A model generated the notes under the pieces. It did not search any database and had not been told where the DNA came from. It saw nothing but the letters and a program-made list of their open reading frames with translations. Shown here piece after piece: positions 5,231 to 26,801 of a stretch of DNA of 64,000 nt (within the stretch, counting starts at the first letter, position 1; every line of letters begins with the position of its first letter). A program made the position numbers and the translations under genes. Origin of the DNA: Nemertoderma westbladi. Taxonomy: Eukaryota > Animalia > Xenacoelomorpha. The stretch lies in contig JAUCBJ010004109.1 in NCBI GenBank assembly GCA_032718475.1, forward strand, positions 1 to 64,000. Reading direction: 5' to 3'.

Positions 5231-6676
5231 ACTTCGGATACATCAGCCTCCCCATCATCGCTGGTTGTCTTGAGAAGTTCTGAATACTGAAAGAAATAGT
5301 CAGATGTATTACAAAGTCATATAAAGTTAAACTATAAAAGTAAACAGGTGATTCACATATGTCTGTAAAAACTGTTCCTGTATCATGACGATTTCAAAGA
5401 CATGATTTTGTCTCGAGCAAGTTCGTCAAAGGAGGACCGTTTTAAAGAAAATTACCTGCACCATTAACTAATTGTTGTGTCTGCCAATTGGGCTCCCTGT
5501 TGCGGGATAAATCCATTAATAATTTAAATATTAATAAGGGCATGCATGACGGGCTTTAGCTTGTTTGGATTGAAGCGCAGGGACCATCAGAGAGGGATAT
5601 AGGTGTAAATTGTTGGGAGAGCGTCTGGTTATTGAGTGTGAGGGAGAGAGAGAGAGAGAGGGAATCTGTATTGAGCTGTGATGGTTAGATTGCAATGGCG
5701 CGAGGTGAGTGGTAATTAAAAGGTCGGGTGAAGGGCAATGTAATAGTATGCTGAGGGGGGGAACCTGTTACCGTGTAGAAACAAGCCAATAAAAATAGCT
5801 TCCTGGTTGACACGGTAGGGAGTGCCTTATTGCTAAAAAAGTTTGGTTAACCAATCAGGATGCAATATAGATAGATAGGAAAATCCAATCTTGTTTTATA
5901 TACGAACAATATATTATTCTTGATGTAAATTAATTAGGACAGAATCCCCGAGAGGATGCAATGATTTGTAATGGGGCCCTTTGGCAGAAAAACCGATTAG
6001 CATCCTGTTTGGTTTTCCATAATTAAATATATTATTTACCGGTGAATTATTAGTAAATTAATTAGTATTAACTGAAATAACTAAAAAGGAAGAATGAAGA
6101 TAAACTATCATTTTGAATAGTACGTAATTTATGGGACGAGCCTTACGGGCGGGTTTTCGGTCAAACCCATATACCGTGTAACCACTGAGGGGATTCCAAG
6201 AACACTCCCACAATGCATTACCAATCGGTTATATGCAGTCTTCAAGTCATACTCATACTATTTTAATAGTTGAAGGCTAAAAACTCCATCGTTTATTAAA
6301 ATATTATAATTTTTTGTTTTTTAAACTACACCCCCAAACGGGGTAATCTGTATAAATATGATAATGATGACAATGCGTTACTGCTGACTTAATACATCAT
6401 TAATGGATTTTACCATTTTGCAAAATAGGCTGGAAACCTCACATCTGAGTTTGTTTTCTTTATGGAATAATATGATAATGACATCTGTCGCATTGTTTAA
6501 TCTAATTCACTCCTATTGTTTTGAACAGGGTTGTAGTAAAGTAACGTTGTAATTAAATAACCAATTAATATCAACAATCAACTACTCCCTTATTAATACC
6601 ATTCCCTTACAGCGAGATGATTTCTTACAAATATTTACTTTCCCCCTGTGCCACCTTTAGTTTTCCCCAACCTAGT

Positions 6677-8854
6677 TGTTACGGTATATGGCGCTGTATC
6701 CACAGTATTAGTCCATTATGCAGTATGCAGTATTAGTCCATTATGCAGTATGCAGTATTAGTCCGTTATACTGTACGTAATATTAGTCCGTTGTGCAGTA
6801 TAATTATTTAGATAAGGCGCAGTGTGGTGACATTTAGGTAAGGAAGTTAAAACGCCCATATATTTTGCATCCATTCATTTTGTATAGTATGTAGCCCTAC
6901 CTACGTAATTTTGTATTAGGATATATGTAGATAGTTCCAGGGTAGCGAGTTTACTCGGACCCTGGATTTTGTGCTTGCTGATATTAGTTTGATAGGGCTA
7001 GCATATAGGGACGCTGTCCTGGCCATTCAGCAGCCAGAGACGTGATCCATTACCATATATGGTAATAATTTGAGGGCATAGGGCTACAATCCGGTCTCCT
7101 TATTGGATTAACTGCTTCCAGGTTGGTTTAATGCTAGCATGGACTGGAGAGCCAATGGGAGAGCGATTGAGTCACCTTATTGCATCACCCCATCCGGATC
7201 ACCTATAAATTGGCGGTGTGCCGGTAGGGCCTTTGTTGTTCATATGTTCATGCCTTATCACATGACACACCCTTGTTACAATTTACTTGCTGAGCTGTCT
7301 CTAATTTCGTATTAGGATATCGTATTTTCTGCAATTTGCTAATTTTGATTAATTTCTTGGAATGATTTGCTAGTGCGATTACTTTGCTTGTGTTTCTCAA
7401 TAATTCCTTCGATTACTGCTAATTACAATTGAACTATGATTTCTACCTTTGATTAATGGTTCTATGTGATTCTTTTCTGCGCAATAATCCCAAGGGATTC
7501 CTGAGACTGTCAGACTTTGTGATTTGCATGCGCCGCTACAGTAGCTATTAGCATCATGGAGGGCTAAGGTGCCAGTGGGCGGTGGGCGCATCGGGGGGTT
7601 GAGCGACTAGGAGAGAGCGGAGGATTCAAAGCGGGCAACGCTGGCCAGGGTCACCGTTGCGGGCGGGTATCTTGCACTGCGGCACGCAGACCGATCGCCG
7701 GTACAGTATCTAGGGGGCTGATGATCCAGGTTTTGTCTCTATTTAGTATTAGGGGGGCAGGAATTGGGTTAGTTAGGAATCCTAGATGTACCCGGGAGAG
7801 GCCTGCGCGTATTATAACGTTGAGTGTGGAGTACGAGTAGTGAATTGCACAATTGTAAACTGTGATTTCTAACGCTGATTGGTGTGTTATTGAAGTGTGC
7901 CTAAGATTACGAATGCTTAGATAGGCGCTCTTTTTCCTTTGATTGATTTCTATTTCTTAGTTACAATAATTAGTTATTGATTAGGTCAAAGTAATACGGC
8001 AATTTAGGCTATTACTAGCGAAACCTGTTGCGTGATAAATTAGAATTACGTATTCTGGAACTCTTAGTAATTAGTACGCTGTTAAATATTTGTGACTGTA
8101 ATTAATTAGTAAAAATTAAGAATTAGTACGCAGCATAGCGGAGAGTAGCTAAGGTAATAATTAGTGTACTGTAAACTATTCACGCTGAGCGGTTATTTGC
8201 ATTAGCGGACAATCAGCTAGAACGCACTATTCGGTACGCACGATACGCTAGTAATTTTGCTGGCCTAAAGCCAGTCGCGGGCAGTTTTAGACTCGGAGTG
8301 GTATTATCCACGTAGAAACAGATACTGTACCATTTTGATATTTTAAATATTCTCGCATTCACACATTACGTTAGGGAACCTCCAGTATTCGCGATTAGAA
8401 AGACGTAGGTAATAGCGTGCTTTAATAGTGATAAAATTAGGCGTAAGAATACTCTGAGTGCAAGGCCTCTCGCACTCGTCTTAAGTAAGCTTAGGGAGCC
8501 GACTCGGGTTTATTGTTTTGGTTATTCCCGCGTGGCTCATAGATTCGAACAGTTAGCTCTCTATCGAGCGATCGGTAGAGAAAGGAACAAGCGATTTTGC
8601 AGGAGTTGTGTAAAATTAGTAAAATATATTAGTGGACGGCAGATTAGCGCCATCTAACGGTAAGTAGCGGTTTTGTATTTAGCAACCCTTACAATTTAGT
8701 AATAGCACGCTCCTGATCCCCTTTACTTAACAGTAGAGCAGTCTTTGTGTCTTATTGGATAGGCGAGAGCTTATTAGGTTGGCAGAAGGATATTAACGGG
8801 TATTGGTCTGTTCAACAGTTCTGCTGTTAGTATAGAGGTCGCGGTTGTTTATCA
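6677..8854 (+). repeat. 5' LTR (2178 bp)
   Basis: Starts TGTTACGG and ends TTTATCA. Direct repeat of 24624-26801 at offset 17947; only two mismatches noticed by eye. Candidate TATA (TATAAA) near 7204. Confidence 0.97.
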
Positions 8855-8866
8855 GTAATACGCGCA
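8855..8866 (+). promoter_or_regulatory. Non-canonical primer-binding site complementary to the element's own LTR
   Basis: The sequence after the LTR is GTAATACGCGCA, with no TGG. Positions 8856-8866 are the exact reverse complement of TGCGCGTATTA at 7804-7814. Confidence 0.65.
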
Positions 8867-10044
8867 TATTGCTTTGCTGTACCGCGTACAGCAAGGCAGA
8901 GAGTATTCTTAGGCTGTTAGTAGTATCATAGTATTAGGCAATAAGTTAGAGCACGTGATCGTCTGCTGTAGGCTATAGGCTAGCGTACAGTAAGACATTG
9001 AGTTTATTCTATTAGGTTGTTAGTTTATATTACTGTATTCACTGGCTGCGTACACTAGTACAGTAGTACATTAGGCTGATTGCTGTTACTGCGTACGGTA
9101 GAAGGACATTTGTTTGCCGTACCACACACACAGTATCATTAGGCTGTTAGGTTGGTGTACTGTTTTACTTACTGTACTGCATACAGTGGATGTACGGTAG
9201 TGCGTTTTGCTAATTGCGAATACAGCAGTTCCTTAGGCCTTAGGGCAAACTGTAATTAGTAAGTTTTTTGAAAATTTTTAGCTAGGTTTGCGAGAATTCA
9301 GTTTTCGGTCAAAATTATTTGTAAAATTCTAGAGTTTTGTACCGGTATGTTAGGTAACCGCTTAGTTATTTTATACCATCTGGAGATACATGGCAAGACG
9401 GAACTTCTGAGTTTGGGGTTCGTGTGGGTCTGCGGGTTCGGTTTGCAATCAGCGAAGGGCCTGAATCTTTGGACGCGGACGTGGAATCTCACAGCAAACA
9501 AGGTTAGTTGTTCTGTTGGCACCAGTGTGTTTGTGGAAGCAGTAAAAAATTATCGGTTGTTTAACTGCGAAGCTGAACTCAATTTATTAGTTAGGATATT
9601 TAGGTTTAGCCGGCCATGGTTTTTTGAATCGCTCAAGTTAGAGAGAGAGTTAGAGAGAGTCGCAACCCGAAGATGTAGCCACGCGCTAGTGGATACATAT
9701 AATATTTGAAATTAAAATTACGTTGATTAGAGCTATATATAAAATTAGAAATATTCGGGTGGCAAGTTTATTTGAATATTTTGTATTAGATTCAAGGTTA
9801 TTTTGTGCTATACCGGTATTTAATATTATATAGTAGCTATATAATAATATTTTTGTTTAAATATTGTGTTAGTATTTGCTATAACTATATACCCCATTAA
9901 ATTCACAATATTGCATTGCGAATTTATTTTGACATTTGGACCAACTGATTATTTGACAAATAATTTGACCGTATTTCGGTTAAATTATAATTATATCTCG
10001 AACTTTTGCGAGATTTTTGCCGGAAGGCAAATATTATTTAGACT

Positions 10045-12327
10045 ATGAGTGTCTCAGACAAAGAGGCACTAGAGGACAGCTATGAGACGGCGGCTGGACC
10101 GCCGACTGACGATAGCGTCAATATTACTGTTGATGACAATGCCGACTATGACGACGCAGCGAGCGACGCTGACGTAAGTGAACAGGAGGACGAGACAGTG
10201 ACTAGTGAGGAAGAACAGCAGCCTCAGGTAATAGTATTAGGATCCCCTACCGCTACTGATAGGAAGGACTGTACGGCAGCCCGGACAGAGGTGAGTGATA
10301 GGGAGGGTAGTGTAGCAGAAGCGAGAGCCCGGAGCCCGGTTTCCAGACCTGTGGGTATGGTAAGTGCCGTGGTCCCGACGGCTGTTAGGAGTACCCGTAG
10401 TTCCCGAAATAATCCTTCAAGTCCACCGAGCGTAAGTCAGGTGAGTGATAGAGAGTTCGATATCGCGATAAAGAAGAAACTTCGCGCGCATGCCGGACAC
10501 ATAACCCGGACGGCGGACAAGGTAAGGAAGATGTTAGCTGACTCAGCGAACATCGGGAGGGTAGACTTAGTAGAGATTAGAAGAGGATATAACTCAGCGT
10601 TATTCAAGCAGACGGAGGAGCTTGCAGTCCTAGCGAAGAAGGCAGTAGAGTCTCAGTCGAGCGACGTAGCAACGAGGATTTACGACAGGGTTTTAGCAGC
10701 CTTGTTAGAGCACCGCGAGTTATCGGAGCGATTCCGACGAGTTAGGACGGAGAACTGGCTGCTATGGACATCACAAGCGCAGGCGACTCAAGTGAGTGAC
10801 GCAGAGTTGAGAGAGTTAGTGGAGCGAGAAGAGATCCAAGACAAGGAGGAGCGCAGGTATCAAAGGGAAGTTACTAGCTGGCTGATGCAGAATGGAGTGG
10901 TGGTACCAGGTCAGGTGCTACCGACGACGGAGAACATCCAACAGAGGACGTTGACTCCACCCGATGATGCATCTAGAGACAGCGGCGATTCCCAGGTTAG
11001 TCACGTGCGAGGTAAGGTAATATGTGCTAGATCCCTTGTTTCTCACAACTCGGCAGAGGAGAGAAGACGCCGACTAGACGAACAGCAGGCGGAAGTTTTG
11101 CGTGCATCGGAAGCACGGAAGGAAGCCGAGCGGGAACGGGAGCGAACACGTAAGTTAGACGCAAAGTTGCGAGAGTTGGAAGACAAAGGTAAGCGTGAGC
11201 AAGCGGAACGCGAACAGGAAGAACGAGAACTCCAACTTGAACGTGAACGCGAAGAGCACGAACTCCAACTCCAACGCGAACGCGAACTCCAACTCCAACG
11301 CGAACGCGAAGAACGTGAACTCCAACTCCATCGCGAACGCGAACGGGAAGCTAAGGAACGCGAGCAAAGAAGACGCGAACTCCAACTCGAACGCGAGCGC
11401 AAGGAGCGCGAACTTGAGCGCGAGAGGGAGCGACGGGCGTTGTATGAAGAGAAGGCGCGTGTAGAAGAAGAGGGCGCAGCACGACGAGCGAGGGAAGAAG
11501 AAGAACGTAAACTGGCGCAGTTGGAAAGTGCGAGATTAAGTTTAGAAAGCGAAGAACGGACTAGGAAGGCGAACGAAATCGCCGAGAAGGGGATGCGAAT
11601 GATCGAAGAATGTGGGGCGAGTGTAGGGACTGAGTTGCGAGAACTGTTCGCACTGCAGAAGGCCGAACAGGAAGCGAGAACTCCGACTATACGCGAGTCG
11701 ACGACGACCAGAATTCCTATACCCGGTCCAGCTATTACGAGTACACGGATCGCTAAACCATTCTCTACATATCGCACGCCAGTTGGTATTAGTGCTTCAC
11801 CTATCGCGCAGAATCCACGTCATCGGAACACCGCACCACTGCACACCGAACACGACGATGAAGAATTTAGAGAAGAAACTCCGACGGGCCGAGTATTTGG
11901 CGAACCGAACCCGCGGGTTTGGAATACGCAGACGGAGCGCCGACCCAGTTCGACGGAGAACTTCCGGGTTAAACCGGAAGAGGGATCATATGAGAGACAG
12001 CGGATTACTCAGATAGAGCCGACTATACAACAGAACCCTAGCCAGGAATTTATTACGAGGGATGAGTTAAGTGCTAGTTTAGCGCAAGCTATATCGCCGC
12101 ACATCCAACCTATAACGGACATGCTTAGCAACCTACGGTTAAAGGAAGCAGCCCAGGTAAGGAGTAATTCTAATCCCAGCAGGCCTGAGTTAGATAAAGT
12201 CCAGCCTAGTCAACGAGTACGCATATCGGAGGAAACTATACCACATAGACCTCAGGTAAGGACGCCTGTCCCGAATATCCATAATCCCAATTTCGAAAAT
12301 TCGGCAGAAAGATACCTAAAGAGGTGA
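10045..12327 (+). CDS. gag: BEL/Pao Gag N-terminal part (putative exon 1, 10045-12313; 760 aa if unspliced)
   Basis: Acidic N-terminus, helical KKKLRAHAGHITRT region and long E/R coiled coil, as is typical upstream of the BEL Gag core. The stop TGA (12325-12327) lies inside the putative intron's P1 loop. Confidence 0.85.
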   Translation: MSVSDKEALEDSYETAAGPPTDDSVNITVDDNADYDDAASDADVSEQEDETVTSEEEQQPQVIVLGSPTATDRKDCTAARTEVSDREGSVAEARARSPVSRPVGMVSAVVPTAVRSTRSSRNNPSSPPSVSQVSDREFDIAIKKKLRAHAGHITRTADKVRKMLADSANIGRVDLVEIRRGYNSALFKQTEELAVLAKKAVESQSSDVATRIYDRVLAALLEHRELSERFRRVRTENWLLWTSQAQATQVSDAELRELVEREEIQDKEERRYQREVTSWLMQNGVVVPGQVLPTTENIQQRTLTPPDDASRDSGDSQVSHVRGKVICARSLVSHNSAEERRRRLDEQQAEVLRASEARKEAERERERTRKLDAKLRELEDKGKREQAEREQEERELQLEREREEHELQLQRERELQLQREREERELQLHREREREAKEREQRRRELQLERERKERELERERERRALYEEKARVEEEGAARRAREEEERKLAQLESARLSLESEERTRKANEIAEKGMRMIEECGASVGTELRELFALQKAEQEARTPTIRESTTTRIPIPGPAITSTRIAKPFSTYRTPVGISASPIAQNPRHRNTAPLHTEHDDEEFREETPTGRVFGEPNPRVWNTQTERRPSSTENFRVKPEEGSYERQRITQIEPTIQQNPSQEFITRDELSASLAQAISPHIQPITDMLSNLRLKEAAQVRSNSNPSRPELDKVQPSQRVRISEETIPHRPQVRTPVPNIHNPNFENSAERYLKR

Positions 12328-13502
12328 GGTCTCTATAGGGGTGTCTTTAGCAGGCGGCGGCGGACTCGTGAGGGTCTGGGGGCACGTTAAAATCTGCCGT
12401 ATAGTGCAAGGGAGTTACTTAAGGCCCTCGTGTCTAACGAACCATGAATCGACATGGTGCCGTGGTATCGTCTAGTCGGCCTGTTGCCGTACTGCCAGTC
12501 CTGTACACAGTAGGGGTGGTGGCATGGCGTGATTTGTGGTTCATGTGGTGTGAACTGTGATTTGTATGTGGGCGACCAGTGGCAGTTAGCTTTGGGGCTT
12601 GGATGTGTGCCATTGACCGTCAGCTGTTCCGTTTTTTTGATACTATATGTTATTGTCTCCATGTTCAGCTGATTGGTCCTTGGAGTGTGTTTAGGTCTGA
12701 GATGAGCTTTCTGTTGCTGTGGGTACGTGAGTACACGTGATTGTATGTGTGGCCACTGCGAGTGAGTGTGGGAAACCTTGCCGGTTGGCCCAGACGCCGC
12801 TGGTATTAGTAGGACCATACTTTACTGCGCCCCAGCATACTTTGTGCACACAAGTTATTTTACCCTGACGGTAAAATAAGGTACTCTCGACTTTCTCATT
12901 CTCTCTCAAGTCGATACAACTAGTCCCTCCCGATTTTGACCCCGATTTTGTCTTTCCCGATTATGTCCTCTGTGTGTGCATGGTATGTGTCAGATTTTGT
13001 GTTTACCGTAGTGTACTTGATATTGTGAACATCTGTTGAGTACACGTGTATAGGACTGGTAAGTGGTTACTTGTTCCTAGCTTTCGAGCTAGTCAGTATT
13101 GTTTGCGGAACTTACTTCCCCTCAATACTGCCGGCGAGGCGGGTGAAAATGTGTCAAAATTCCATGTGGGGTAGCGCAAGCCCACATGGGACAAGACCGT
13201 CGGTTAGGCCCAAGGGCGACCTTGGTGCTTGATCGCTATCGACTGGTCCACCCGCCGGTTGACTCTCTGAGTTGGCTCAATGTACAGTCAGGCCACAGTG
13301 AGTTGACAGTAGCGGCCCATCTGGCTACACGTTCGACGAGCTGTGCCGGTGTGATCGGGGGACCGAAAACAGAACCCGGGAAGCATCGGGCCACCCTCCG
13401 GCCCGGTCTGATAATAACATCAGTCAGACTGGCCCCAGGGGTGGTGGAAAGGTGTCCGCCTCGTGGGTGCGCCTCGGGGAGGAGCCCAGAAGGACACAAG
13501 CG
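12314..13502 (+). ncRNA. Putative group I self-splicing intron within gag (3' end uncertain)
   Basis: P1 AAAGAU(12308-13)/GUCUUU(12343-48) with U.G; P3 GGCGGGUG(13138-45)/CACCCGCC(13249-56); P4 13149-55/13195-200 with A-rich J4/5; P5 13160-91; P6 CGGUUA(13201-06)/UGAUCG(13230-35) plus a GCGA-capped P6b; J6/7 CUA; P7 U-C(bulge)-GACUG(13239-45)/CAGUCA(13285-90); P8 13257-77; J8/7 CAAUGUA; several P9-region hairpins; candidate terminal G at 13502. Confidence 0.8.
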
Positions 13503-16500
13503 TTATTGAGGAAGCTTGGGTCAGGGCCTCGGCGCGCAAACCATCGCGAGCGCTAAGGACTGACACTGAGTCAAGCGATGAAGAGGAAGAAATGAGACGT
13601 CAGAAGTCCCGAAACTATAAGGAAAGAAGGACGGACGCGGAGCAGGTAAGTTGGAACCACCGGGAAAGGACCAGACTTAGCAACCCTGCGGAACTAAACC
13701 ATTTGTTAACCCGGAACGACGCAACCCTTAGAGACATAGGTAAGTTTGCTGCTAGGCAAGGACTGCCGACGCAACAACCCCAGAAGTTTATGGGTAACCA
13801 CAAGCACTGGAGGACCTTCAAAACCTATGTCGACGAGCAGCTAACCAACAGCACCTTTACTCCCAACGAGAAGTTCAACTATTTGCTTCAGATGCTCCAT
13901 CGAGAACCTAGAGCCATTGCTGATAACTTCGTCGGCAATGAACGGGCATTCGAGTTAGCGATGAAGACGCTTAGTGACATCTACGGGAATAAAACCAAGA
14001 TGGCGCAGTCGATAGTAGAAGACTTGGGTAAGGGCGGAAGGATTACAACTCCGTTAGAGCTGTTGAACTTAGCGAACGCTATTTCGAACGCATTGGACAT
14101 CTTGAGGACGGTGAATCTACCTCATCATGGTGATCACGCCGAAGTTTTGAAAAGCGTAATAAGACGTTTAAACATGCGTTACAGACAGAAATGGCGCAAA
14201 TTAGAGAATAAGTTGGAGGGCCAAGGTAAAGTATTGACACTTCAGCATATTCATGACATGATAGCCACAGACGCAGTAGCAGATATGAAATCAAACTTCT
14301 CAGAAGAGAATATGAGGGAGTCTAAACCTGTTACCGGTAAGTCTATGGTAAGTTTTGACGATGACAGGACCACTGTGACATTTAACTCAGTAGACAGATA
14401 TAATTCGAGTACCCCAGCCTTTAGATCAGACTCGCGAGTATGGTCAGGTGAGCGGTTAGATAGACCTAGGTTAAAGCAACAGGAGTTACCGGATGGATTT
14501 GTAGGTTGCCAATACTGTTTACTAAAGGAGGTAAGATCTGACGACCATAAGTTAGATAGTTGCAGACGGTTCAAAGAATTAAATTCGGAACAGAGAAGAG
14601 TTCAAGTGCGGACGTTGGACACCTGTTGGGCATGTCTTGCGCCAGGTCATGTACGGCGGCAGTGCCCTAACAGCAAGGACGGATGCATGGAATGCGGCAG
14701 ACTACATCACAAGTTGCTACATGCGGATTTCCATACCCCAACGGACCGTTACTTACAGCGAAATCCTCACAGGAAGGGGAGCAAAGAACCCGTATCGATA
14801 AGGAGGAATACATACACTGGCATCCGGGACGATGGTTACCAACCAGGTTCGTCGGACGAGGATGGCGAGTCGAGCGCGAGAGAAGTGACCTGCCAAGGTT
14901 TCACCGCGGATAGTTCATCGACCAGCGCGCGGACGTATTTATCATCGGCCACGTCGGAAATATTTAGCGTGATTCCGGTGAAACTCACTGGCGATAAGGG
15001 ATCGAAGCGAATATATGTGATGTTGGACACTGCGTCCACATTATCATATATCGACGAGGAAGTGGCGAGAGCCGTTTCTAGCTTCCAGGACGCCGAGGAG
15101 ATCCAAATAGAGTTGAAGTCTATGCATGGGGTAGGAGACCTCAAGGGACACAGAATTTCGGTGGAACTAGATTCCCTACTTCCGAGAGACCAGCATACTC
15201 GACAAGAACGGAAAGCTTTGCCATTGGACGGATTTAAGTGTCTAGCTATGAAGGGATTCGGCAGGCAGTTAGGTAAGGTGCCGCCGATGAGTCCCATAGC
15301 ACAGGAGTATTTTGACAAGCTCAGGATACCCAGACACCAGGTAGGTTATAGGAATGTTTCTATGTTAATTGGTGCAGAACAGCTGATCGCACACCAGATA
15401 TGGGAAACGAGACCAGCTGAGCCGCATGTCAATGGACCACATGCCCATAGGACCATACTAGGTTGGTATACACGAGTACCCATGTCTTATGAGTTTACAG
15501 GTGGCGACAAGCCAATGGACAGATACGACGAATTACAGCCTATAACTCAACCACCGTTAGTAGAACCACCAGACATAGACGAGTTTAGGAGAACCTGCAT
15601 TGACCACTATAGTGACTTTAGCGAGTCGGACGAGGAGTTGATTCCCGATAATGTTAGGTTGTCGGAACCACTTCATAACGACCGGACAGATAGTGAACCC
15701 GAGGACTACTGTTATCAGACCCGTGGGTCTGGTTCAGCGGCCCACGCTACCTATTTGACTAACGTTTTGACTTATACAGACATAGTGGAGGGTCAAGTGG
15801 CTAAATATCGAGACCTAGACATTTTCCAATACAGTGAGGAGGAATTACAGAAGGAATTGATACGCCAGGACCTCGAGACAGGAGCCAGAACCGTCGAATG
15901 GCTGGATAGGGACGCAATGGAACCCGGTGGATATGACCTAGCCATGTCTACTGATGAGAAACGGTCGCTGGAGATGATGGAAGACACCATACGTCTGCTA
16001 CCGACTGGACATTTTGAAGTTGGAATGTTGTGGCGTCGACAACCACCTAAGTTGGAGAACAACTACAACTTAGCCTTGAAAAGATTGAACGGAGTAAGGG
16101 CTCGGTTGTTGAAGAATCCGGACATTAGGGAGAAGTATTGCGCCCAGATCAACAACTATTTCGCCAAGGGATTTGCTGGGAAGGTAGAGGACCCTGACTT
16201 AGTGACAGACCAGACTTATTACCTTCCACACCACTATGTGACTCACCCTGACAAGCCAGACAAAGTCCGAGTAGTCAACGACTGCGCAGCAGTCTATAGA
16301 GGTATGTCCCTGAATTCAGAGTTGATGGATGGTCCCAACCTGAATAACTATTTGATAGGAATACTGTTGCGTTTTAGACAGCGGCGATTCGCATTTACTT
16401 GTGACATCGAGGCGATGTTCCACCAGGTAAGAGCCTGTAAGGCAGACCAGGATAGCCTTCGCTTTCTCTGGTACGAGAACGAAGACTTATCCGGCCCAGT

Positions 16501-18364
16501 GGTTACATACCAAATGTACGTTAGGATATTTGGCGCCCGCGATAGTCCGAACGGCACGCTGTTTGTTCTAAAGAAAACGGCAACAGCCCAGATTGGTAAG
16601 TACCCAGTAGAAGTAATCGAGTCCATCTTGAGAAACTTCTATATGGACGACGGATTGGTGTCCAAGGACACGGCGGAACAAGCCATAGAAGTGGCTCACG
16701 GCCTGCAAGAGTGCTTGGCTACAGGGGGATTTCCTCTGACCAAGTTCACTACTAATTCGGAGGCCCTATTAGAATCGTTCCCGGTAAAAGATCGCGGGAG
16801 CGGAGACATAGAATTGGGGGTAGAACCAATCCCCATGGCGCGAGTACTGGGACTCGCTTGGAATCCGAATTCAGACAAGTTCCAGGTAAGAGTTAGATTT
16901 GAGCCCAGTAGCCCAGACAAAGTTTTGACAAAGAGGATTTGCTTATCGACATTAAGTAGAATATTTGACCCGATGAACTTTATCAGTCCGGTTATATTAC
17001 AGGCACGAGCGTGCATGAGGAAAATTTGGTTGTCCGACTTAGAGTGGGACGAACCAATATCTCCTATACATGCAAAGCAGTGGAGGGAGTGGGAAGCCGA
17101 GTTGCATCTGTTGAAAAATATAGATGTACCCCGTTCCTACTTTCCGAATCAGTTGGTATTTCCAACTGATTTAGAGCTGCACCTATTTAGTGACGCAAGT
17201 GACACCGGCTTTGGTATGGTAGCCTACCTTCGCCGAGAGGTAAGTCAGGACAAGTTTGAGACGGCCTTTGTGACTTCTAGATCAAAGACAATGCCGGTCA
17301 AATATATGACTGTCCCTCGTGCAGAGTTACAGGCGGCTGTAGTTTCGGTCGAGGTAAGTAAGCAGATAATTGAGGAGTTAGACACGACATTGACCTTATT
17401 CTATTGGACGGATGCATCCTTGGTGTTAGTATACATTGCGGCCGACAATATTGCACTAAAGACATTTGTGGCCAATAGACGCGCTCAGATCGTTGACTTT
17501 TCAACGAAGGAACAATGGAGACATTGTCCGGGAGTGTTGAACCCGGCCGACATAACTTCGAGAGGTGCAATGCCGGCGGAATTCTGTCGGGAAGAGTCGC
17601 AGGAGTTTTGGTTGCATGGACCTGATTTTCTAACAAGGACACAGGAACATTGGCCAGAGCGACTAAAGATAGTGACCAATCCGATGCCTGAAGATGCAGA
17701 AGTCAAAGTGGAGAAAGTCTCTAAGTCGAAGTCTAAAGCCAAACTTAAGTCATTGGAGCGGCCTGAAGAGTCATTGGAGCGGCCTGAAGAGTTATTGGAG
17801 CGGCCCGGAGACCTGTCAGACCAACAGACTTACGTGACTACTAGGTCAGGAAGGGTAAGTTATGACGTAAAACCACCCTTACAGACTAAACCGGAGTCAC
17901 AGTTGGTAAGTGACGGACAGAAAATGACCGACACAATGGAGCCTTTGGTTTCCAAACCTGCGGGTTTGGATTCGAAACTTCCATTGGTCAGCGGACAACC
18001 GTCGCTGGCATTAGAGTCATGCAGTATTTATGACAAATTACTAAATTCGTCTGCCTCTTGGCTGACAATTTGTAAAAGAACTGCGTGGTTAAGCCGATAC
18101 GTTTCGTACCTTTGTTTAAAACATTCGAAACATTTGAGAGAACCATCGAGCGCCAATAGTGAGCGAATTCGGAAATTGAAACAACCTCTGACAGAGGATG
18201 AGATTGATCAAGCGGAATTAAAGCATTTGAAACACTATCAAATGTGTGCCTTCCCAAAAGAATTCCATCTATTATCGGCTCAACGACTAGTTCTCTATAA
18301 ACCCCTTAGAAAATGGAGTCCATTAATCCATAAGGGTTTGATTTGTCATAGATCGAGAATCTAG
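13503..18364 (+). CDS. gag-pol: BEL/Pao Gag core, zinc knuckles, protease, reverse transcriptase and RNase H (putative exon 2; ORF track 13463..18364)
   Basis: Gag core KFMGNHKHWRTF...EKFNYLLQML; knuckles CQYC..H..C, CWACLAPGHVRRQC, CMECGRLHHKLLH; PR LDTAS; RT DIEAMF and YMDD; RNase H FSDAS, ELQA, WTDA, NPADITSRG. No convincing own start (the track start is GTG). Confidence 0.95.
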
Positions 18365-19615
18365 ACTGTCGACATAAACTCACAGTTTCGGTTCCCAGTG
18401 ATAATCCCTAGTCACCCAATAGAATTGCAAAGAGCGATTCTATGGGATATACACAAGAGGTTGCATCACGCGGGAAAGTTACACTGTCTGTCGGCAGCGA
18501 GACAGCGATTCATTCTATTGCAGCCAAGCAGGGCAGTAGGCACTATGTACGACGCCTGTCTGGTTTGCAAGAGAGTGAACGCCAGAGTATTGGAACAGGA
18601 GATGGCTGAACTCCCGGAAGCGAGAGTGCAGGCATATGACCCACCCTTTACGAACACAGGGGTGGATTGTTTTGGTCCGATTGAGGCAAAGAGTGGACGG
18701 CTGACCCACAAGCGATGGGGTCTGCTACTGACATGTATGGCGAGTAGAGCCATACACATCGAGCGTGTGGCAGACATGTCGACCAAATCTCTGCTCCTGG
18801 CCTTAAAGAGATTTATGGCCAGGAGAGGACTAGTAAAGGCGTTCTACTCTGACAAGGGTACAAACTTTGTCGGAGGGAATAGCGAGTTGAACGCGGCTCA
18901 TAAAGCAGCACAGAATAAGGAAATTTCTGCAGCACTTTTGCCGCAACGAGTAGAGTGGAGATTCAATACTCCAGAAAGTCCTTGGAGAGGAGGAAGTTGG
19001 GAGCGTTTAGTTCGCTCTGTAAAGCAGGCCATTGCTAAGACGTTGCCTGTAAACAAACAACTTACCGACGACGAACTGGTTACAGCTTACATTGAAATCG
19101 AGCATACCCTAAACTCGAGGCCGATAGCTATGTTGCCAGACGGTGTTGCATTAACGCCGAATCATTTGCTAATGCAGAGTCCAGCATTTCTTGTGCCGGC
19201 ATCAGAACCCATTAGTGCCGACCTATATAGTCGTAAGAGCTGGAAAGTAACACAGTTAGTGGCGTACACATTCTGGGAATATTGGCGGGAATACTATCTT
19301 CCCACCATATCTACCAGAACAAAGTGGTACAAGACGGTTCGGAGTCTCCAAAGGGGAGATTACGTGTTGATAACCGAGCCGATTATCAAGAGAAAGTATT
19401 GGGAGACAGGAGTTATCTTGCACACACACCCAGACGCGCAAAACATAGTGCGCACAGTCACTGTGAAAATTAGGTGCAAGTGTCCGCACCCAAAAAAGTG
19501 TAAAACTGATGGTTTGCACACCTTGGACCGACCGGTCCAAGATATTGTGTTATTAGAGGAGACACGTATCGAGACGGGAGATTATAATTTGTCTCCTGCC
19601 TCAAAACAGAGTTAG
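18365..19615 (+). CDS. Integrase, same frame as pol, separated by a single TAG
   Basis: HHCC (IHKRLHHAG...CLVC), DCFGP, SDKGTNF, GGSWERLV. The frame continues RSRI*TVDINSQFRFPVIIP across TAG 18362-18364. Confidence 0.93.
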   Translation, partial: TVDINSQFRFPVIIPSHPIELQRAILWDIHKRLHHAGKLHCLSAARQRFILLQPSRAVGTMYDACLVCKRVNARVLEQEMAELPEARVQAYDPPFTNTGVDCFGPIEAKSGRLTHKRWGLLLTCMASRAIHIERVADMSTKSLLLALKRFMARRGLVKAFYSDKGTNFVGGNSELNAAHKAAQNKEISAALLPQRVEWRFNTPESPWRGGSWERLVRSVKQAIAKTLPVNKQLTDDELVTAYIEIEHTLNSRPIAMLPDGVALTPNHLLMQSPAFLVPASEPISADLYSRKSWKVTQLVAYTFWEYWREYYLPTISTRTKWYKTVRSLQRGDYVLITEPIIKRKYWETGVILHTHPDAQNIVRTVTVKIRCKCPHPKKCKTDGLHTLDRPVQDIVLLEETRIETGDYNLSPASKQS

Positions 19616-20373
19616 TGTTGGACGCAACTCACTTCGTATGCATTCCTCGTATGCAAATACAAGGAAATGCATAGGAGCGGGGTTGTGGTGATTTGCGTTG
19701 AGTTTTGTCTGGTGGGTATCAAAACAAAATTTTATTTCAAAAATTTTGGAAAAAATTAGAAAATTTTAAAAATTAGAAGTGAACCCAAGACAATTCCAGA
19801 CGCTGTGTATAGACGCGTTTTAGAATTCGTCTATAGATAACAGTAATTTGAAAGTCGTGAAGCCTGGAAAATAGCATTTAGAAACCATGGTGACGGCTAT
19901 ATTACGTAGGAGTGTAAATTGAGTTTAGCAACTTCCACAGATTGGTGCCAACAGTGCAACTAAGGTGCTAAAGGTTAGTAGCACCAGAGGCGTGCACGGA
20001 CCCCACTCAGTAGTTTGCAGGATGTGTGATGTTCGATTATCAAACCTGTGGGTTTGGTATAGTCGAGTATTGTGGCTATGGTCCTTTCTAACTACTGTAG
20101 TTTAGTACGAGTAATGGGAGTAGTTTGGGCATCAAAAAGTGAGTTGGTCACGGCCAGTTTATCTCCAAAGTTTTTGCGCTATGCATGGGAATAGGTTAGA
20201 GGATAGTTAGTTAGGAAGAGACGGGATCTAGAGAGTCGAACCTGAACTGCTGGAAGGCGGGGGGGGTTCGGGAGGTCTGTCCTTCGGCGACATCTAACTG
20301 ATTTACCCACAGTGTAGTTGGTTACGTAACGGCACTTATTGGGATATATATATATGTATATACGCGTAACATA

Positions 20374-23300
20374 ATGGAGAGGGATATTAGAGCGCAACCG
20401 CGCAGAGGATTTACTGCCAGAGAGGAGGCGGAGCTACCATTCGCGCGACCAGGATGTAAAGACTCTAACATTTACTACCATGGGCGGTCCGTGATGGAGC
20501 TGAACGGGAAGTACAAACCAAGTTATGATAAAGAATTACGGAGAGAAAGAATGAGAGCGTTGGGGGACCGGATGGAAGTCTTGCGGAGAGAGTATCGCAC
20601 GCGGTATCCCTACGACTTTGCTTTGGACGTGTGCGACATTAGCGCAGATCCGGACGAGGAAATCGCACGACTATACCATATGAATATGTATTTACGACAT
20701 GAGGAGCCTCTACCTGCAGTCCGAGACCAGTTCGACGGAATGCACCTGTATCGGAGGACTCGAGGCGAGGATCAGGAGACGCCGAAAGTCTTCGGCGTAT
20801 ACAAGCTCTTCTACAAGTGTGGTGAATGCATGAATAAACAGGACGTGGCGATTCCCGACCGATTAGACGAGCAACATCCGGAACCGATATTAACGCGATG
20901 TCCAGCTCACCAATTCCTTAGATACAACGAGGGAGGTTACCCGATGAGCAACCCGATGATCAGTATCGACTTCAGCGGAAAGCGACCTCCGAGACCCATT
21001 ACGCCGACCGTTACGACATTAGATCCGTATACGGAGATTAAACCCTGTTCGACACCCAGTTTGATAGAGACGGCAGCGGCCATTTCGCTGTACCGAGCCT
21101 ATAAGGATCTAGAGGCGCGGCGCGAAGCGGCGCGGGACTCGGGTACCAAACCCGCGGGTTTGGAGCTCTCGAGTCCCTGGACTGCGTTTACTTCACCTCA
21201 CCGAGTGAGAAGCCTCACGCCTGAGCATCAGGACGACATAGACGCGTTGCGGCAGGAGGAGCGAGCGGCGAAGGCGAAAGAGTTATTTGAGAACAGGATA
21301 GCGGAGTATAATAAGACCGCGGATAGACATCAAGAGGAGACGAGGAGAGTGACCGGATTTGTTCCACAGGTCGTATCTCAACCCGGACCGGTGTATTATT
21401 CCGACGGCACCGAACCTGCGATATTAGTAGATCATCCGGAGTCGCGAGAAGCGATACGATTCTTGCCGATGGTAAGAATGGCGGACCATTGGAACGTTGA
21501 CTGTCTACGGGAAGTTTTATGCGCGAAGTTCTTGCGTGATGTCCCAATGCAGATCACAGATTACGACACTTTGGATAAGATTGGAGCTCCGGGGAAGGAG
21601 AGTAAACTATTCGGATGGTTGGATAAGTACATCAAGGTATGGGTCGCGGTGGCTACATTCCCAGACGACGAGGAGGTAGACCAGACGTGGCTGAGGAGGA
21701 AGGGTTCTTATACCCGATATGATGACCACAAGGCTATCGAGCGCATGTGGACCCCATCAGATGAGATTCAGCGTCAGTGGAGGAAAACGGAGGAATCACT
21801 GCAGGATTGGAGAGTGATGTTCTACGACAATGAAGGAGGGTCCCATCAGGAATGTTTGACCAGCAAGTGTATTCAAATTCGTGCGGCCGATGGTGTGACT
21901 CATGTGTTTATGCGTATGAGGGCGGATCGAGAGAGACCGGAGCCCATCATAACGACACAATATCGGAAAGGGAAGGATCCTAGGGAACCGATTTTGGAGG
22001 TATGCAGGCGAGGAGGTATGCACGGAGCGGAGCGTATCGACGCCAGGATGTTACCCAAGAAAGTTAGAGAGGCTATTCTCAACCAAGATTACGTCAAGGT
22101 GGGATCGGGAGCCCAGAGCGATTTGGAGAGCGACTTCAACGCCATGACTGATCTGGAAGATAGATTGCCGAGACCGTTTGTCGACACCAAGCTATTGTTG
22201 CTATGGGCACAGGATATTGGAATTTATAGGGAGTATCCCAACTCTGCCAAGACTGGTATGGGCTTTATAGCACACTTGTTGTATAATTGGGACTTTAAGT
22301 TAAAGACGCAAAAGAAGTACGAGGAGGCGTATGGCGAATACAACACGCCACCGGGAGCGGAGTTCAAATCCCACTTCAAGCGGCAAGCGTTAGTGTATTG
22401 GAACATTTGCGCGCCACCCCGTGCGTCGCTACAATATTATTTGGTGCTTGAGTCGAACACGGTGACTTGTTTATTAGCGGATATCGTTGCGCGAGTTTTG
22501 AAGCGTCATCCATTGGTATTCGGAGGAGATCAATACGTTCGCTCGAAAAGGGGAATCCAATCCGACGTGATGAAGCGTTTCTTAACCCCGTTCTTCAACC
22601 AATCGTTAGAGAATACGTCGATGGTGAGGAGAGGATTAGCGATATTCGAAGGAGTATATCGACAGAACATCGGAGATTTGGGAGACCGACCGTCGATGGA
22701 ATATCCGACGCCAGAAGCTTTGGAGAAGTGGTTCGGGAATCAAACCCGCGGGTTTGGTACTCCCTTCCACTCGGAGGCTGATAGACCTGTTAAGGAGGGC
22801 TGGCCGGAAACGTTAGTAGAGGTGTTCGGAGTAGATCTTCCGGTGGAGAAGACATATCCGAAACGAACGCGGGAGGAAATATTGGAGATAGAGGACAAGG
22901 GCGAGGATGTTTACTTTGTTCCGGATCGACAACCGTTGACCGGAGAGGACGACATCGTATTAGACATTGGGAAGGAAGGAAGTGCGAAACCGATTGGAGA
23001 CCTCATATACGAGAGGGCCTGGTTTCCACAAGCGCGTAGGTGCAAATTGTGCGGCAGCACAAGGCACAATCTAAAGTCGTGCGACGCGGTAATAGAGGCG
23101 GCGCATAAGGTCTGTCGTTGGTGTAATGAGACCAACCATTCGTTTCACACGTGCACCGTCTTCATTTCTCAATGTGGATATTGTGGAGTAAAAGGACATC
23201 GTAGCGCGAGATGTCAGCTGCGAGATGATTCCTTTCAAAACCATAGCGCTAACCTACTTCGGGAGATGTTAGACAAGTGGGAGAGTGTGGCGGATTACCA

Positions 23301-24210
23301 TATTCAAGCGCAGATGCGTTGGTTACCATTTAAAGCGGGATATGGGTTTTGGGCGGTAGACCCATCGCATGTTGCGTACGAGCCATATCTTCAATCGCTA
23401 CCACAATATCAGGAGCTCATCCTAACTGCTCAAGACCTTCCACAGAACACTGGAGTTATCGTAGTCCGAGAATACTTCAGACAATTGAACATGGACAATA
23501 AGTACACATGGAACTTCGTTGCTATTTGCGATCGCATCACGAAGGGTGTATTTACGGAGACTAGAAAAGTGGTACGCGCGCGAGGTGATTGGAGGATGGC
23601 GGCTATACAATACCGCAACGAATTCTTGTTGACTCATGTGCCAGTGGGTTCATTGACCGCCGAGAGGATACAGGAACAAAGGATCGCAGCGACCACAGCG
23701 ACGACCGCTGGAGCTCAAGGCTCGCGGAAAGAACCAGGAGGAGGGGTCCAAGACAAGCGTCAAGTCAAGGACGACCACTACCACTCCATTATAGAAGCTC
23801 AACGGTTGCAGCGCAAGGCGCAGGGGGCGTCTGAGAAAGCGCGTGTGCAACTGCAGAAGGAAGAGTTGGCGGAAGCGACCACGGGAGCGCGACAATTGGG
23901 ACGAGGCCGAGGGAGAAGTTCGAGCCGAGAATCTGTCGGGGCTCAGGGAACGTCGTCGTCGGTTCCGGGGAGTGACGCCTCACGGACGCCGTCAACGGAG
24001 TCGACTAGAGGTAGATTAGTGTATCTTGGGAAGGGGACGAAAGAGAGGAGCGAGCCCATAGAACCCAGGAGCGGGTCGATAATACATTATGGCACAGGGC
24101 GACAGACTCTAGATATATACATCATCGTCGCTCTGATGTATATTGTAGCATTTGAAAATTTTCGACTAGACTCGTATACACTAGTTGAGTTATTTGAATT
24201 TATATTATGA
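20374..24210 (+). CDS. Accessory ORF3 (1278 aa): DEDDy 3'-5' exonuclease-like domain plus three CCHC zinc knuckles
   Basis: ExoI VMFYDNEG (~21814-21837), CIQIRAADGVTHVF, ExoII LPKKVREAILNQDYVKVGSGAQSDL, FVDT, ExoIII-like W..APPRASLQYYLVLE (to ~22452). Knuckles CKLCGSTRHNLKSC, CRWCNETNHSFHTC, CGYCGVKGHRSARC (23041-23214). Intact ORF inside the LTRs. Confidence 0.8.
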   Translation: MERDIRAQPRRGFTAREEAELPFARPGCKDSNIYYHGRSVMELNGKYKPSYDKELRRERMRALGDRMEVLRREYRTRYPYDFALDVCDISADPDEEIARLYHMNMYLRHEEPLPAVRDQFDGMHLYRRTRGEDQETPKVFGVYKLFYKCGECMNKQDVAIPDRLDEQHPEPILTRCPAHQFLRYNEGGYPMSNPMISIDFSGKRPPRPITPTVTTLDPYTEIKPCSTPSLIETAAAISLYRAYKDLEARREAARDSGTKPAGLELSSPWTAFTSPHRVRSLTPEHQDDIDALRQEERAAKAKELFENRIAEYNKTADRHQEETRRVTGFVPQVVSQPGPVYYSDGTEPAILVDHPESREAIRFLPMVRMADHWNVDCLREVLCAKFLRDVPMQITDYDTLDKIGAPGKESKLFGWLDKYIKVWVAVATFPDDEEVDQTWLRRKGSYTRYDDHKAIERMWTPSDEIQRQWRKTEESLQDWRVMFYDNEGGSHQECLTSKCIQIRAADGVTHVFMRMRADRERPEPIITTQYRKGKDPREPILEVCRRGGMHGAERIDARMLPKKVREAILNQDYVKVGSGAQSDLESDFNAMTDLEDRLPRPFVDTKLLLLWAQDIGIYREYPNSAKTGMGFIAHLLYNWDFKLKTQKKYEEAYGEYNTPPGAEFKSHFKRQALVYWNICAPPRASLQYYLVLESNTVTCLLADIVARVLKRHPLVFGGDQYVRSKRGIQSDVMKRFLTPFFNQSLENTSMVRRGLAIFEGVYRQNIGDLGDRPSMEYPTPEALEKWFGNQTRGFGTPFHSEADRPVKEGWPETLVEVFGVDLPVEKTYPKRTREEILEIEDKGEDVYFVPDRQPLTGEDDIVLDIGKEGSAKPIGDLIYERAWFPQARRCKLCGSTRHNLKSCDAVIEAAHKVCRWCNETNHSFHTCTVFISQCGYCGVKGHRSARCQLRDDSFQNHSANLLREMLDKWESVADYHIQAQMRWLPFKAGYGFWAVDPSHVAYEPYLQSLPQYQELILTAQDLPQNTGVIVVREYFRQLNMDNKYTWNFVAICDRITKGVFTETRKVVRARGDWRMAAIQYRNEFLLTHVPVGSLTAERIQEQRIAATTATTAGAQGSRKEPGGGVQDKRQVKDDHYHSIIEAQRLQRKAQGASEKARVQLQKEELAEATTGARQLGRGRGRSSSRESVGAQGTSSSVPGSDASRTPSTESTRGRLVYLGKGTKERSEPIEPRSGSIIHYGTGRQTLDIYIIVALMYIVAFENFRLDSYTLVELFEFIL

Positions 24211-24616
24211 AAGAGGCGAAGGAAGTGATTGGGGAGACAAACCTGCGGGTTTGGCTTACTCCTTTCACTTGCCCTAGCAAAATTTTATATTTGATTTTGT
24301 ATGTAGTAATCATTATGTAGTAAGAATGAACGAGAAACAATATTTTGTAAATTTAATTTGTATGTAATAATCGTTAAACAGTGAGAGAGATAATATTTTG
24401 TAAATTTAATTTGTATGTAATAATCGTTAAACAGTGAGAGAGATAATATTTTGTAAACTTAATTTGTATGTAATTCATTATGCAATATCTATGGCAATAT
24501 TTGTAAATAGTAGAATTATTATGTTATTTAGATTGGTTGGAAGAAATTTATTTTGTTTTGTATACATCACCTTATACTCTTCTACAATTGGAGGGAAACA
24601 TTATATGATTTCCCTT

Positions 24617-24623
24617 GGAGCGG
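24617..24623 (+). promoter_or_regulatory. Short polypurine-tract-like motif before the 3' LTR
   Basis: GGAGCGG directly abuts the TG of the 3' LTR and is preceded by a GAGGGAAA...TTTCCCTT hairpin. Confidence 0.55.
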
Positions 24624-26801
24624 TGTTACGGTATATGGCGCTGTATCCACAGTATTAGTCCATTATGCAGTATGCAGTATTAGTCCATTATGCAGTATGC
24701 AGTATTAGTCCGTTATACTGTACGTAATATTAGTCCGTTGTGCAGTATAATTATTTAGATAAGGCGCAGTGTGGTGACATTTAGGTAAGGAAGTTAAAAC
24801 GCCCATATATTTTGCATCCATTCATTTTGTATAGTATGTAGCCCTACCTACGTAATTTTGTATTAGGATATATGTAGATAGTTCCAGGGTAGCGAGTTTA
24901 CTCGGACCCTGGATTTTGTGCTTGCTGATATTAGTTTGATAGGGCTAGCATATAGGGACGCTGTCCTGGCCATTCAGCAGCCAGAGACGTGATCCATTAC
25001 CATATATGGTAATAATTTGAGGGCATAGGGCTACAATCCGGTCTCCTTATTGGATTAACTGCTTCCAGGTTGGTTTAATGCTAGCATGGACTGGAGAGCC
25101 AATGGGAGAGCGATTGAGTCACCTTATTGCATCACCCCATCCGGATCACCTATAAATTGGCGGTGTGCCGGTAGGGCCTTTGTTGTTCATATGTTCATGC
25201 CTTATCACATGACACACCCTTGTTACAATTTACTTGCTGAGCTGTCTCTAATTTCGTATTAGGATATCGTATTTTCTGCAATTTGCTAATTTTGATTAAT
25301 TTCTTGGAATGATTTGCTAGTGCGATTACTTTGCTTGTGTTTCTCAATAATTCCTTCGATTACTGCTAATTACAATTGAACTATGATTTCTACCTTTGAT
25401 TAATGGTTCTATGTGATTCTTTTCTGCGCAATAATCCCAAGGGATTCCTGAGACTGTCAGACTTTGTGATTTGCATGCGCCGCTACGGTAGCTATTAGCA
25501 TCATGGAGGGCTAAGGTGCCAGTGGGCGGTGGGCGCATCGGGGGGTTGAGCGACTAGGAGAGAGCGGAGGATTCAAAGCGGGCAACGCTGGCCAGGGTCA
25601 CCGTTGCGGGCGGGTATCTTGCACTGCGGCACGCAGACCGATCGCCGGTACAGTATCTAGGGGGCTGATGATCCAGGTTTTGTCTCTATTTAGTATTAGG
25701 GGGGCAGGAATTGGGTTAGTTAGGAATCCTAGATGTACCCGGGAGAGGCCTGCGCGTATTATAACGTTGAGTGTGGAGTACGAGTAGTGAATTGCACAAT
25801 TGTAAACTGTGATTTCTAACGCTGATTGGTGTGTTATTGAAGTGTGCCTAAGATTACGAATGCTTAGATAGGCGCTCTTTTTCCTTTGATTGATTTCTAT
25901 TTCTTAGTTACAATAATTAGTTATTGATTAGGTCAAAGTAATACGGCAATTTAGGCTATTACTAGCGAAACCTGTTGCGTGATAAATTAGAATTACGTAT
26001 TCTGGAACTCTTAGTAATTAGTACGCTGTTAAATATTTGTGACTGTAATTAATTAGTAAAAATTAAGAATTAGTACGCAGCATAGCGGAGAGTAGCTAAG
26101 GTAATAATTAGTGTACTGTAAACTATTCACGCTGAGCGGTTATTTGCATTAGCGGACAATCAGCTAGAACGCACTATTCGGTACGCACGATATGCTAGTA
26201 ATTTTGCTGGCCTAAAGCCAGTCGCGGGCAGTTTTAGACTCGGAGTGGTATTATCCACGTAGAAACAGATACTGTACCATTTTGATATTTTAAATATTCT
26301 CGCATTCACACATTACGTTAGGGAACCTCCAGTATTCGCGATTAGAAAGACGTAGGTAATAGCGTGCTTTAATAGTGATAAAATTAGGCGTAAGAATACT
26401 CTGAGTGCAAGGCCTCTCGCACTCGTCTTAAGTAAGCTTAGGGAGCCGACTCGGGTTTATTGTTTTGGTTATTCCCGCGTGGCTCATAGATTCGAACAGT
26501 TAGCTCTCTATCGAGCGATCGGTAGAGAAAGGAACAAGCGATTTTGCAGGAGTTGTGTAAAATTAGTAAAATATATTAGTGGACGGCAGATTAGCGCCAT
26601 CTAACGGTAAGTAGCGGTTTTGTATTTAGCAACCCTTACAATTTAGTAATAGCACGCTCCTGATCCCCTTTACTTAACAGTAGAGCAGTCTTTGTGTCTT
26701 ATTGGATAGGCGAGAGCTTATTAGGTTGGCAGAAGGATATTAACGGGTATTGGTCTGTTCAACAGTTCTGCTGTTAGTATAGAGGTCGCGGTTGTTTATC
26801 A
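24624..26801 (+). repeat. 3' LTR (2178 bp)
   Basis: Near-identical to the 5' LTR and followed by TSD CTAGT. Confidence 0.97.

Follow-up and report, generated by a model that had tools for sequence, protein, structure and literature searches.

How can an intron that removes itself from RNA persist in a mobile element that multiplies by copying its RNA back into DNA? The question is raised by a 20,125-bp BEL/Pao retrotransposon at positions 6677-26801 of a 64,000-nt stretch from the animal Nemertoderma westbladi (GenBank assembly GCA_032718475.1, contig JAUCBJ010004109.1, positions 1 to 64,000 of the forward strand), referred to here as the window. The gag gene of the element is interrupted by a segment with the predicted fold of a group I intron. 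A preliminary description of the same DNA proposed that the intron sorts the RNA into spliced messengers and selectively packaged genomes, and presented the intron, an apparent self-priming signature, an exonuclease and repeated palindromes as one system. The reading favored here, with a probability of about two in three, is that a virus-related group I intron lies in gag of a young, high-copy element and is likely self-splicing, and that the reverse transcriptase (RT) copies both spliced and unspliced RNA, which would yield intron-less as well as intron-bearing insertions.

Segment 12314-13502 is a group I intron as judged from its predicted fold, a full P1-P10 core that bears out the ribozyme-type intron of the preliminary description. 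The fold includes a U.G pair at the 5' splice site, a terminal G (G13502) together with P10, a core built on the P3/P7 pseudoknot, and a G-binding site. P3 (13138-45/13249-56) forms 8/8 pairs, P4 (13149-55/13195-200) contains one bulged U and is stacked upon by P6, P5 and P8 are also formed, and in P7 (13239-45/13285-90) a bulged C13240 is followed by the pair G13241-C13289. All junction lengths are canonical, with 3 nt in each of J3/4, J6/7 and J7/3 and 7 nt in J8/7, and both J4/5 and J5/4 are A-rich. A descriptor of this core, composed after the window sequence had been inspected, matches once in the two strands of the window, in one of 30,312 intron shuffles and in none of 732 shuffles of the element. 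The boundaries of the intron are set independently by intron-less DNA contigs, and the intron is predicted, and likely, to self-splice from the element RNA. Rfam, run at three settings, returns no group I match in the window, and the gathering threshold of RF00028 is not reached; according to PMC2238919, the 2007 seed lacked the IB1, IB2, ID and IE subgroups. The intron harbors no open reading frame (ORF) for a homing endonuclease, the longest frames being 118 (+) and 144 (-) codons, and homing at the DNA level would therefore be unlikely without help. The intron may resemble subgroup IE, which is marked by its P7/J8/7 sequence and peripheral pairings. Two other ribozyme candidates were rejected, namely a group II intron, for which no D5 was found by eye, and a hammerhead in the long terminal repeat (LTR), for which Rfam gave no match.

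The closest relatives of the intron come from large DNA viruses. In IMG/VR, two core patterns match 27 and 28 stretches in almost identical sets, and about 28 contigs of large DNA viruses carry the same core; a longer exact pattern of the intron matches no viral contig. The only core-pattern match in prokaryote genomes is unrelated and falls within a reading frame, and the phage collection gives chance matches only. When the window core is aligned with 13 viral cores (n=14, omitting the near-duplicate L041), 98.5% of the 518 cells are paired and 14 of the 37 pairs have changed on both sides; none of 500 shuffles pairs as highly and slid controls reach 24-49%. The pairs changed on both sides reveal helix covariation in P3 (5/8), P5 (3/4) and P8 (6/9), while P4, P6 and P7 are nearly invariant and hence uninformative. 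The relatedness of the cores inflates these counts, but P3, P5 and P8, where the changes occur, are the helices that the model calls for. The G-binding site (C13240, G13241-C13289) is invariant in all 14 cores, and the window P3 has window-specific changes on both sides.

A profile built from the viral rows alone recovers the window core at an E-value of 3e-26, and homology extends beyond the core into the 5' block (12439-12489) and the 3' block (13319-13386). The viral cores split major capsid, DNA polymerase B (PolB) and D5 helicase genes. In the five homologues examined, the insert without exception follows a U, ends in G, measures 402-519 nt and splits a conserved motif. Core identity to the window over 105 columns spans 70-83%, with 78-83% for the capsid introns (best PDB matches of the host genes, 6ojn and 7yjl, which we take to be iridovirus capsids), 78-80% for the PolB introns, 75% for the D5 intron and 70-74% for L020, L025 and L039. 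By these alignments the window intron is closely related to the introns of large DNA viruses.

Copies with and without the intron are found side by side in DNA. The window or a part of it is present in contigs of six runs, none of them recorded as RNA, and four of the seven runs listed were compared with the window; these include X1 (study P1), X3 (study P2) and X5 (study P4), and one of X1 and X3 may be the source of the window. Run X4, which has low depth and may be RNA, was left out of the assessment of splicing. In X1 and X3, all 30 bins of the element are deeply covered. A 172-nt ORF3 contig identical to the window copy has a depth of 7,733 against 24 for the unique flank, which implies a family of hundreds of copies; the depth of the unique flank is 16 in X1 and 24 in X3. 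The intron and ORF3 bins stand at about half the depth of the pol bins in both runs, a ratio to be read as an order of magnitude. Among the joints displayed, exon 1 is joined to 13503 in four sequence variants of X1 and X3 contigs, with 0, 5, 8 and 16 unplaced letters, and each length corresponds to the exact removal of 12314-13502. The depths of the intron-less junctions are 1213, 382 and 430 in X1 and 2017, 619 and 72 in X3, and the deepest junction (12313 to 13503), represented by three contigs in each run, has exon flanks like those of the window copy. DNA contigs of two studies thus contain both of the forms, intron-plus and exactly intron-less, that the preliminary description had advised scoring.

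Run X5 displays a different pattern, with intron bins at a depth of 1665-1725 and gag-pol bins outside the intron at 0-66. Three of its contigs extend beyond 13502 with sequence that does not resemble the element, and one contig connects 13502 with 23808; in X3, a joint leads from the intron end to 19249, following a U. The X5 pattern suggests that the intron may have reached other contexts.

Removal of the intron fuses ORF1 (phase 1) in frame to ORF2, giving 2,376 codons to a stop and a further 417 after it. The spliced Gag-Pol of about 2790 codons given in the preliminary description is thus recovered as 2,793, provided that the stop at 18362-18364, which that description did not mention, is counted as a codon.

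The favored reading starts from an intact core, the rule of U.G pair and terminal G, exact intron-less DNA copies and an in-frame fusion. Splicing in vivo would be slow or partial, such that a share of the packaged genomes would remain unspliced. Unspliced copies would make no capsid or Pol and would rely on splicing or on the proteins of intron-less copies, and the intron would be a hitch-hiker rather than a regulator of Gag:Pol. With less confidence, a large DNA virus may have been the source of the intron, which would have arrived through reverse splicing and subsequent reverse transcription; the same two steps might take it to other 3' contexts. Reverse splicing combined with the RT of the element would be the simplest entry route. 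A broader version, which is tentative and falls somewhat short of even odds, portrays the virus-derived ribozyme as an RNA parasite of an animal LTR element that splices out for gag-pol, is lost upon copying of spliced RNA, and invades this and other elements anew through reverse splicing that RT fixes in the chromosome.

Several points weigh against the favored reading. The case for splicing comes from DNA contigs and a predicted fold. The window core contains an extra U in P4 that is seen in none of the 13 viral cores, and ∼540 more nucleotides separate the 5' block from the core than in the viral introns; either feature could slow or kill the window ribozyme. The window copy is probably non-autonomous, owing to a stop before the integrase. 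The junction evidence consists of 15 of 90 joints displayed plus one table, and summed contig depth is an order of magnitude, not a copy number. The site at 19248 pairs with the guide at 5/6 positions, as do 617 of 3,694 U sites. The tree of cores shows no resolved donor (1 of 11 branches is starred and the window sits on a long branch), and the viral matches were selected by window-derived patterns, so that donor and direction are not fixed. The intron-less copies, finally, could represent an ancestral, never-invaded state; the contigs are unphased.

This last point underlies the alternative that survives best, although it is unlikely: a real group I intron invaded once, and the intron-less copies are the ancestral lineage rather than reverse-transcribed spliced RNA. 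Any invasion needs an intron-less precursor, and some intron-less junctions have diverged exon letters. The exon flanks of the deepest intron-less junction nevertheless resemble those of the intron-bearing window copy, and an active intron should yield new intron-less copies in every round.

A lower probability is assigned to a ribozyme that is dead or nearly so, in which case intron-bearing copies would be non-autonomous and moved in trans by intron-less copies, and the intron would never be lost. The extra U in P4, the long insert, the stop before the integrase in the window copy, and an X5 in which intron depth is high and gag-pol almost absent are all in keeping with it. A dead ribozyme is harder to reconcile with a core in which all pairs are kept and P3 has changed on both sides, with a P1 and P10 that fit the present exons, and with exons that are both long open frames. 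Moreover, nearly all other copies differ from the window at position 13150, in the direction that improves P4.

The model of the preliminary description, in which packaging selects unspliced RNA and the intron sorts transcripts between a Gag-Pol mRNA and a genomic RNA that also makes a Gag, now appears improbable. Intron retention in a large share of copies (in X1 and X3) is consistent with the model, as is the enrichment of the intron in Pol-less contexts in X5, which an intronic packaging signal would explain. However, the 760-aa unspliced product is devoid of capsid and nucleocapsid domains, since DUF1759 and the zinc knuckle are encoded downstream of the intron, in exon 2. Unspliced RNA would therefore encode only the acidic, coiled-coil N-terminal piece of Gag that precedes the capsid-like domain, which argues against a switch between Gag and Gag-Pol. 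The layout of ORF1 is like that of the Gag N-termini of relatives, without a significant match, and ORF1 has no match in the atlas. Exactly intron-less copies are abundant in the DNA of two studies, contrary to selective packaging, and all eight hairpins, the best candidates for packaging signals, are exonic. As partial splicing accounts for both classes of copies, selective packaging is not required.

Removal of the segment by the spliceosome, with an incidental ribozyme fold, is very improbable: a GT (12324) and AG (13500) pair and the reading frame would fit, but all displayed intron-less joints end at 13503, which would give AC...CG ends, and the homologous viral inserts follow the group I rule. 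A one-off chimera or assembly artefact, an outcome foreseen in the preliminary description, is refuted by the deep coverage of all bins in X1 and X3, the deep ORF3 contig identical to the window copy, and an intact target-site duplication (TSD), in a family that carries intron and ORF3 at hundreds of copies.

A literature search, with most subscription journals and the Repbase notes outside its reach, turned up neither an LTR retrotransposon nor any of these viral capsid genes reported to contain a group I intron. Eukaryotic viruses have reportedly been known to carry self-splicing introns since Yamada et al. 1994. The introns of large DNA viruses described here (L020-L074 in IMG/VR) share with the window intron the core, the 5' and 3' peripheral blocks, the splice-site rule and a protein-coding host gene. 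They differ in host, here an animal nuclear LTR retrotransposon whose RNA is reverse-transcribed, in length (402-519 nt, compared with 1,189 nt here) and in the extra U of P4.

Among cellular genes, a review places nuclear group I introns only in ribosomal RNA (rRNA) genes of eukaryotic microorganisms; reverse splicing and reverse transcription are proposed there as a mobility route, the complete pathway being without evidence (PMC3679873). The protist and fungal introns in nuclear ribosomal DNA (rDNA) covered there are likewise nuclear and of the same ribozyme class, whereas the present intron occupies an animal protein-coding gene and its host element supplies the RT (PMC3679873). In a survey of 42,459 group I introns, no multicellular animals other than placozoans, corals and sponges are represented, and their introns are mostly mitochondrial (PMC11835236). 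Endogenous Polinton-like viruses of protists offer another setting outside rDNA, in which group I introns lie in protein genes of mobile elements resident in nuclear DNA (PMC12220804); unlike the present case, these are DNA elements without an RNA-to-DNA step, and their introns are Rfam-detectable and 309-376 nt long. The ribozyme class is therefore known, while an animal LTR retrotransposon as host, with intron-bearing and exactly intron-less copies, is undescribed in the literature searched and is regarded as real and unusual.

The significance of the locus lies in a group I intron present at high copy in an animal nuclear protein-coding gene, within an element that supplies RT, where the review places nuclear examples only in microbial rDNA (PMC3679873). 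As intron-bearing and exactly intron-less copies occur side by side, a single genome allows direct tests of two old questions, whether introns are lost when spliced RNA is reverse-transcribed and whether they spread by reverse splicing. The relationship with the viral introns suggests that viruses harbor a group I intron family missed by Rfam and that ribozymes have moved between large DNA viruses and retrotransposons. The RNA-parasite reading, if true, would provide a natural case of a full RNA-level mobility pathway, for which evidence has been lacking.

The viral introns merit separate mention. L020-L074 form a group I intron family, distributed over capsid, PolB and D5 helicase genes, that Rfam misses: 16 of the 27 viral loci were submitted, and none gave a match. 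Several of the introns are near the 3' end of a capsid gene and could give wrong annotated C-termini. Two of them, L027 and L037, form a tandem pair with a spacing of 555 nt where a single capsid gene ends. In L021 and L042, ORFs with DUF7487 adjoin such introns and may encode mobility nucleases.

Table 1. Positions in the window of the features of the BEL/Pao element and its predicted group I intron.
Feature	Position	Strand	Remarks
Left TSD (5 bp)	6672..6676	.	5 bases identical to 26802-26806
5' LTR	6677..8854	+	2,178 bp, TG...CA; 2 mismatches to 3' LTR
Candidate self-primer, LTR stretch complementary to the primer-binding site	7804..7815	+	11 Watson-Crick pairs and one G.U
Primer-binding site (PBS)	8855..8866	+	not of the usual tRNA-3'-end type
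gag exon 1	10045..12313	+	unspliced ORF1 reads to stop 12325-12327; 760 aa, acidic, coiled coil
Eight 16-nt palindromes/hairpins	10344, 11906, 15716, 17953, 20041, 21147, 22741, 24238 (10344..24253)	+	
P1	12308..12348	+	U12313.G12343 at 5' splice site
Group I intron (predicted fold)	12314..13502	+	1,189 nt; preceded by U, terminal G, no homing endonuclease
P10	guide 12330-12338 with 13503-13511	+	8/9 pairs
5' peripheral block in common with viral introns	12439..12489	+	76-86% identity
Catalytic core P3-P4-P5-P6-P7-P8	13138..13290	+	G-binding pair G13241-C13289, bulged C13240
3' peripheral block (P9 region) in common with viral introns	13319..13386	+	
Exon 2	13503..18364	+	capsid-like DUF1759, zinc knuckles, protease, RT (YMDD), RNase H; closes at in-frame stop
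In-frame stop separating RNase H from integrase	18362..18364	+	corresponding stretch uninterrupted in relative P0001
Integrase (H2C2, core, DUF5641)	18365..19615	+	Pfam
ORF3 (1,278 aa)	20374..24210	+	predicted DEDD-type exonuclease fold ~21800-22600; three CCHC-like knuckles ~23030-23210
3' LTR	24624..26801	+	self-comparison and inspection
Right TSD	26802..26806	.	matches left 5 bp

The element is assigned to BEL/Pao (Belpaoviridae) from its Gag-protease-RT-RNase H-integrase order with Pao-type domains, its TG...CA LTRs and its 5-bp TSD. LTRs with 2 mismatches in 2,178 bp and the same 5 bp on both sides imply a young insertion, as the preliminary description had noted. BEL/Pao elements are usually 5-10 kb long, in agreement with the preliminary description, which called this element unusually long for the group. 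The frames on the + strand are ORF1 (10045-12327, 760 aa), ORF2 (13418-18364), an in-frame continuation (18365-19615) and ORF3 (20374-24210). Pfam detects DUF1759, a weak zinc knuckle and Peptidase_A17 in ORF2, and Integrase_H2C2 and DUF5641 in the continuation, with no match above cut-off in ORF1 or ORF3. The 17 relatives have 25-38% identity; all 17 contain Peptidase_A17 and most the full set of Pao domains. A search of viral contigs found no relatives of the RT. Metagenomes contain 19 related loci at 34-42% identity, none with a group I core, although most of these loci do not reach gag. Given the stop between RNase H and integrase, assessed against P0001 with the element translated with X at that position, the integrase is probably not made from the window copy unless by readthrough.

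Compared with P0001, ∼100 extra codons lie between RNase H and integrase (17700-18010), a region that contains a 21-nt tandem repeat as well as one palindrome. The start of the LTR has 25-nt tandem repeats (6702-6801), and AT-rich 53-nt tandem repeats at 24271-24623 are followed by an atypical polypurine tract preceded by a hairpin. Joints in X5 at 6739-9056 and 20261-22246 suggest deleted, non-autonomous derivatives of the family.

The preliminary description treated the four traits of the element as one system, but nothing ties the self-priming signature, ORF3 or the hairpins to the intron, and DEDDy ORF3s occur in other LTR elements (PMC5408684). These three probably count among the element's older features and do not depend on the intron.

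The apparent self-priming is upheld as a signature of the Tf1 type, in which the PBS is complementary to the LTR of the same element. PBS positions 8856-8866 are an 11-nt perfect complement of LTR positions 7804-7814, equalled by 3 of 15,700 internal 11-mers. The complement is contiguous in the LTR, and a primer assembled by splicing is therefore unnecessary. Nearly all other copies differ at 7815 such that the 12th pair is Watson-Crick. The sole TATAAA lies 600 nt upstream of the candidate self-primer, and the sequence immediately preceding the latter (7652-7801) forms long GC-rich stem-loops that could assist in setting the primer's 5' end. The literature search found no report of self-priming in BEL/Pao. 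Self-priming is described in Tf1/sushi and some plant lineages in PMC6317226 and PMC3601003. The Tf1/sushi elements share a PBS complementary to their own LTR over 11-12 nt (PMC6317226), but the self-primed elements covered there belong to Ty3/gypsy and some copia lineages, whereas here the host is BEL/Pao and the complement is 1,127 nt into the LTR.

ORF3 has a predicted RNase D-like (DEDD-type) fold, on which profile and structure agree. Eight relatives at 26-33% identity were found among 1.84 billion representatives, and they have in common with ORF3 an exonuclease-like region and three CCHC-like knuckles. The family profile matches the knuckles of Lin28 and nucleocapsid, as well as EXD2 (E 0.0035). 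A low-confidence model, with a mean predicted local distance difference test (pLDDT) score of 47, aligns to NrnC, Nibbler, Egalitarian and RNase D at Z 8-9.6, the alignments to NrnC and Nibbler having Z 9.4-9.6, a root-mean-square deviation of ∼4 and 182-187 aligned residues. Foldseek gave no row for ORF3 at E <= 0.001, word searches gave no match, and a single-sequence fold (pLDDT 33) was of no use. Candidate catalytic acids (DxE, D, YxxxE) can be picked by eye within a poorly aligned region. Of the captured exonuclease in the preliminary description, the DEDD-type fold stands by profile and model, and capture from a host is a conjecture. The Juno/Vesta LTR elements of bdelloid rotifers have a DEDDy ORF3 (PMC5408684), which likewise follows pol as an additional ORF and has an RNase D-like exonuclease fold; the present example differs in its BEL/Pao host, its 1,278 aa and its three CCHC-like knuckles.

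The repeated palindromes are confirmed, with 8 sites against 0.28 expected by chance. All are in the internal region and exonic, with none in the LTRs or the intron, and each of the three codon phases is represented among them. Seven of the eight fold better on the + strand, via G.U pairs, and they are read as RNA hairpins that are possibly dispersed packaging or protein-binding signals. The palindrome is absent from all 75 loci searched.

The genes flanking the element in the window comprise a signal recognition particle (SRP) RNA gene, MFS and EamA transporters, mS30 and Mff, and are consistent with an animal nuclear chromosome. The SRP RNA gene is of metazoan type (31496-31793; Rfam, 251 bits). 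A reverse transcriptase frame of non-LTR type (RVT_1, DUF6451) lies on the - strand at 35756-37645, and long tandem arrays occupy 2745-4435 and 55320-58335, the second of which is open in more than one reading frame.

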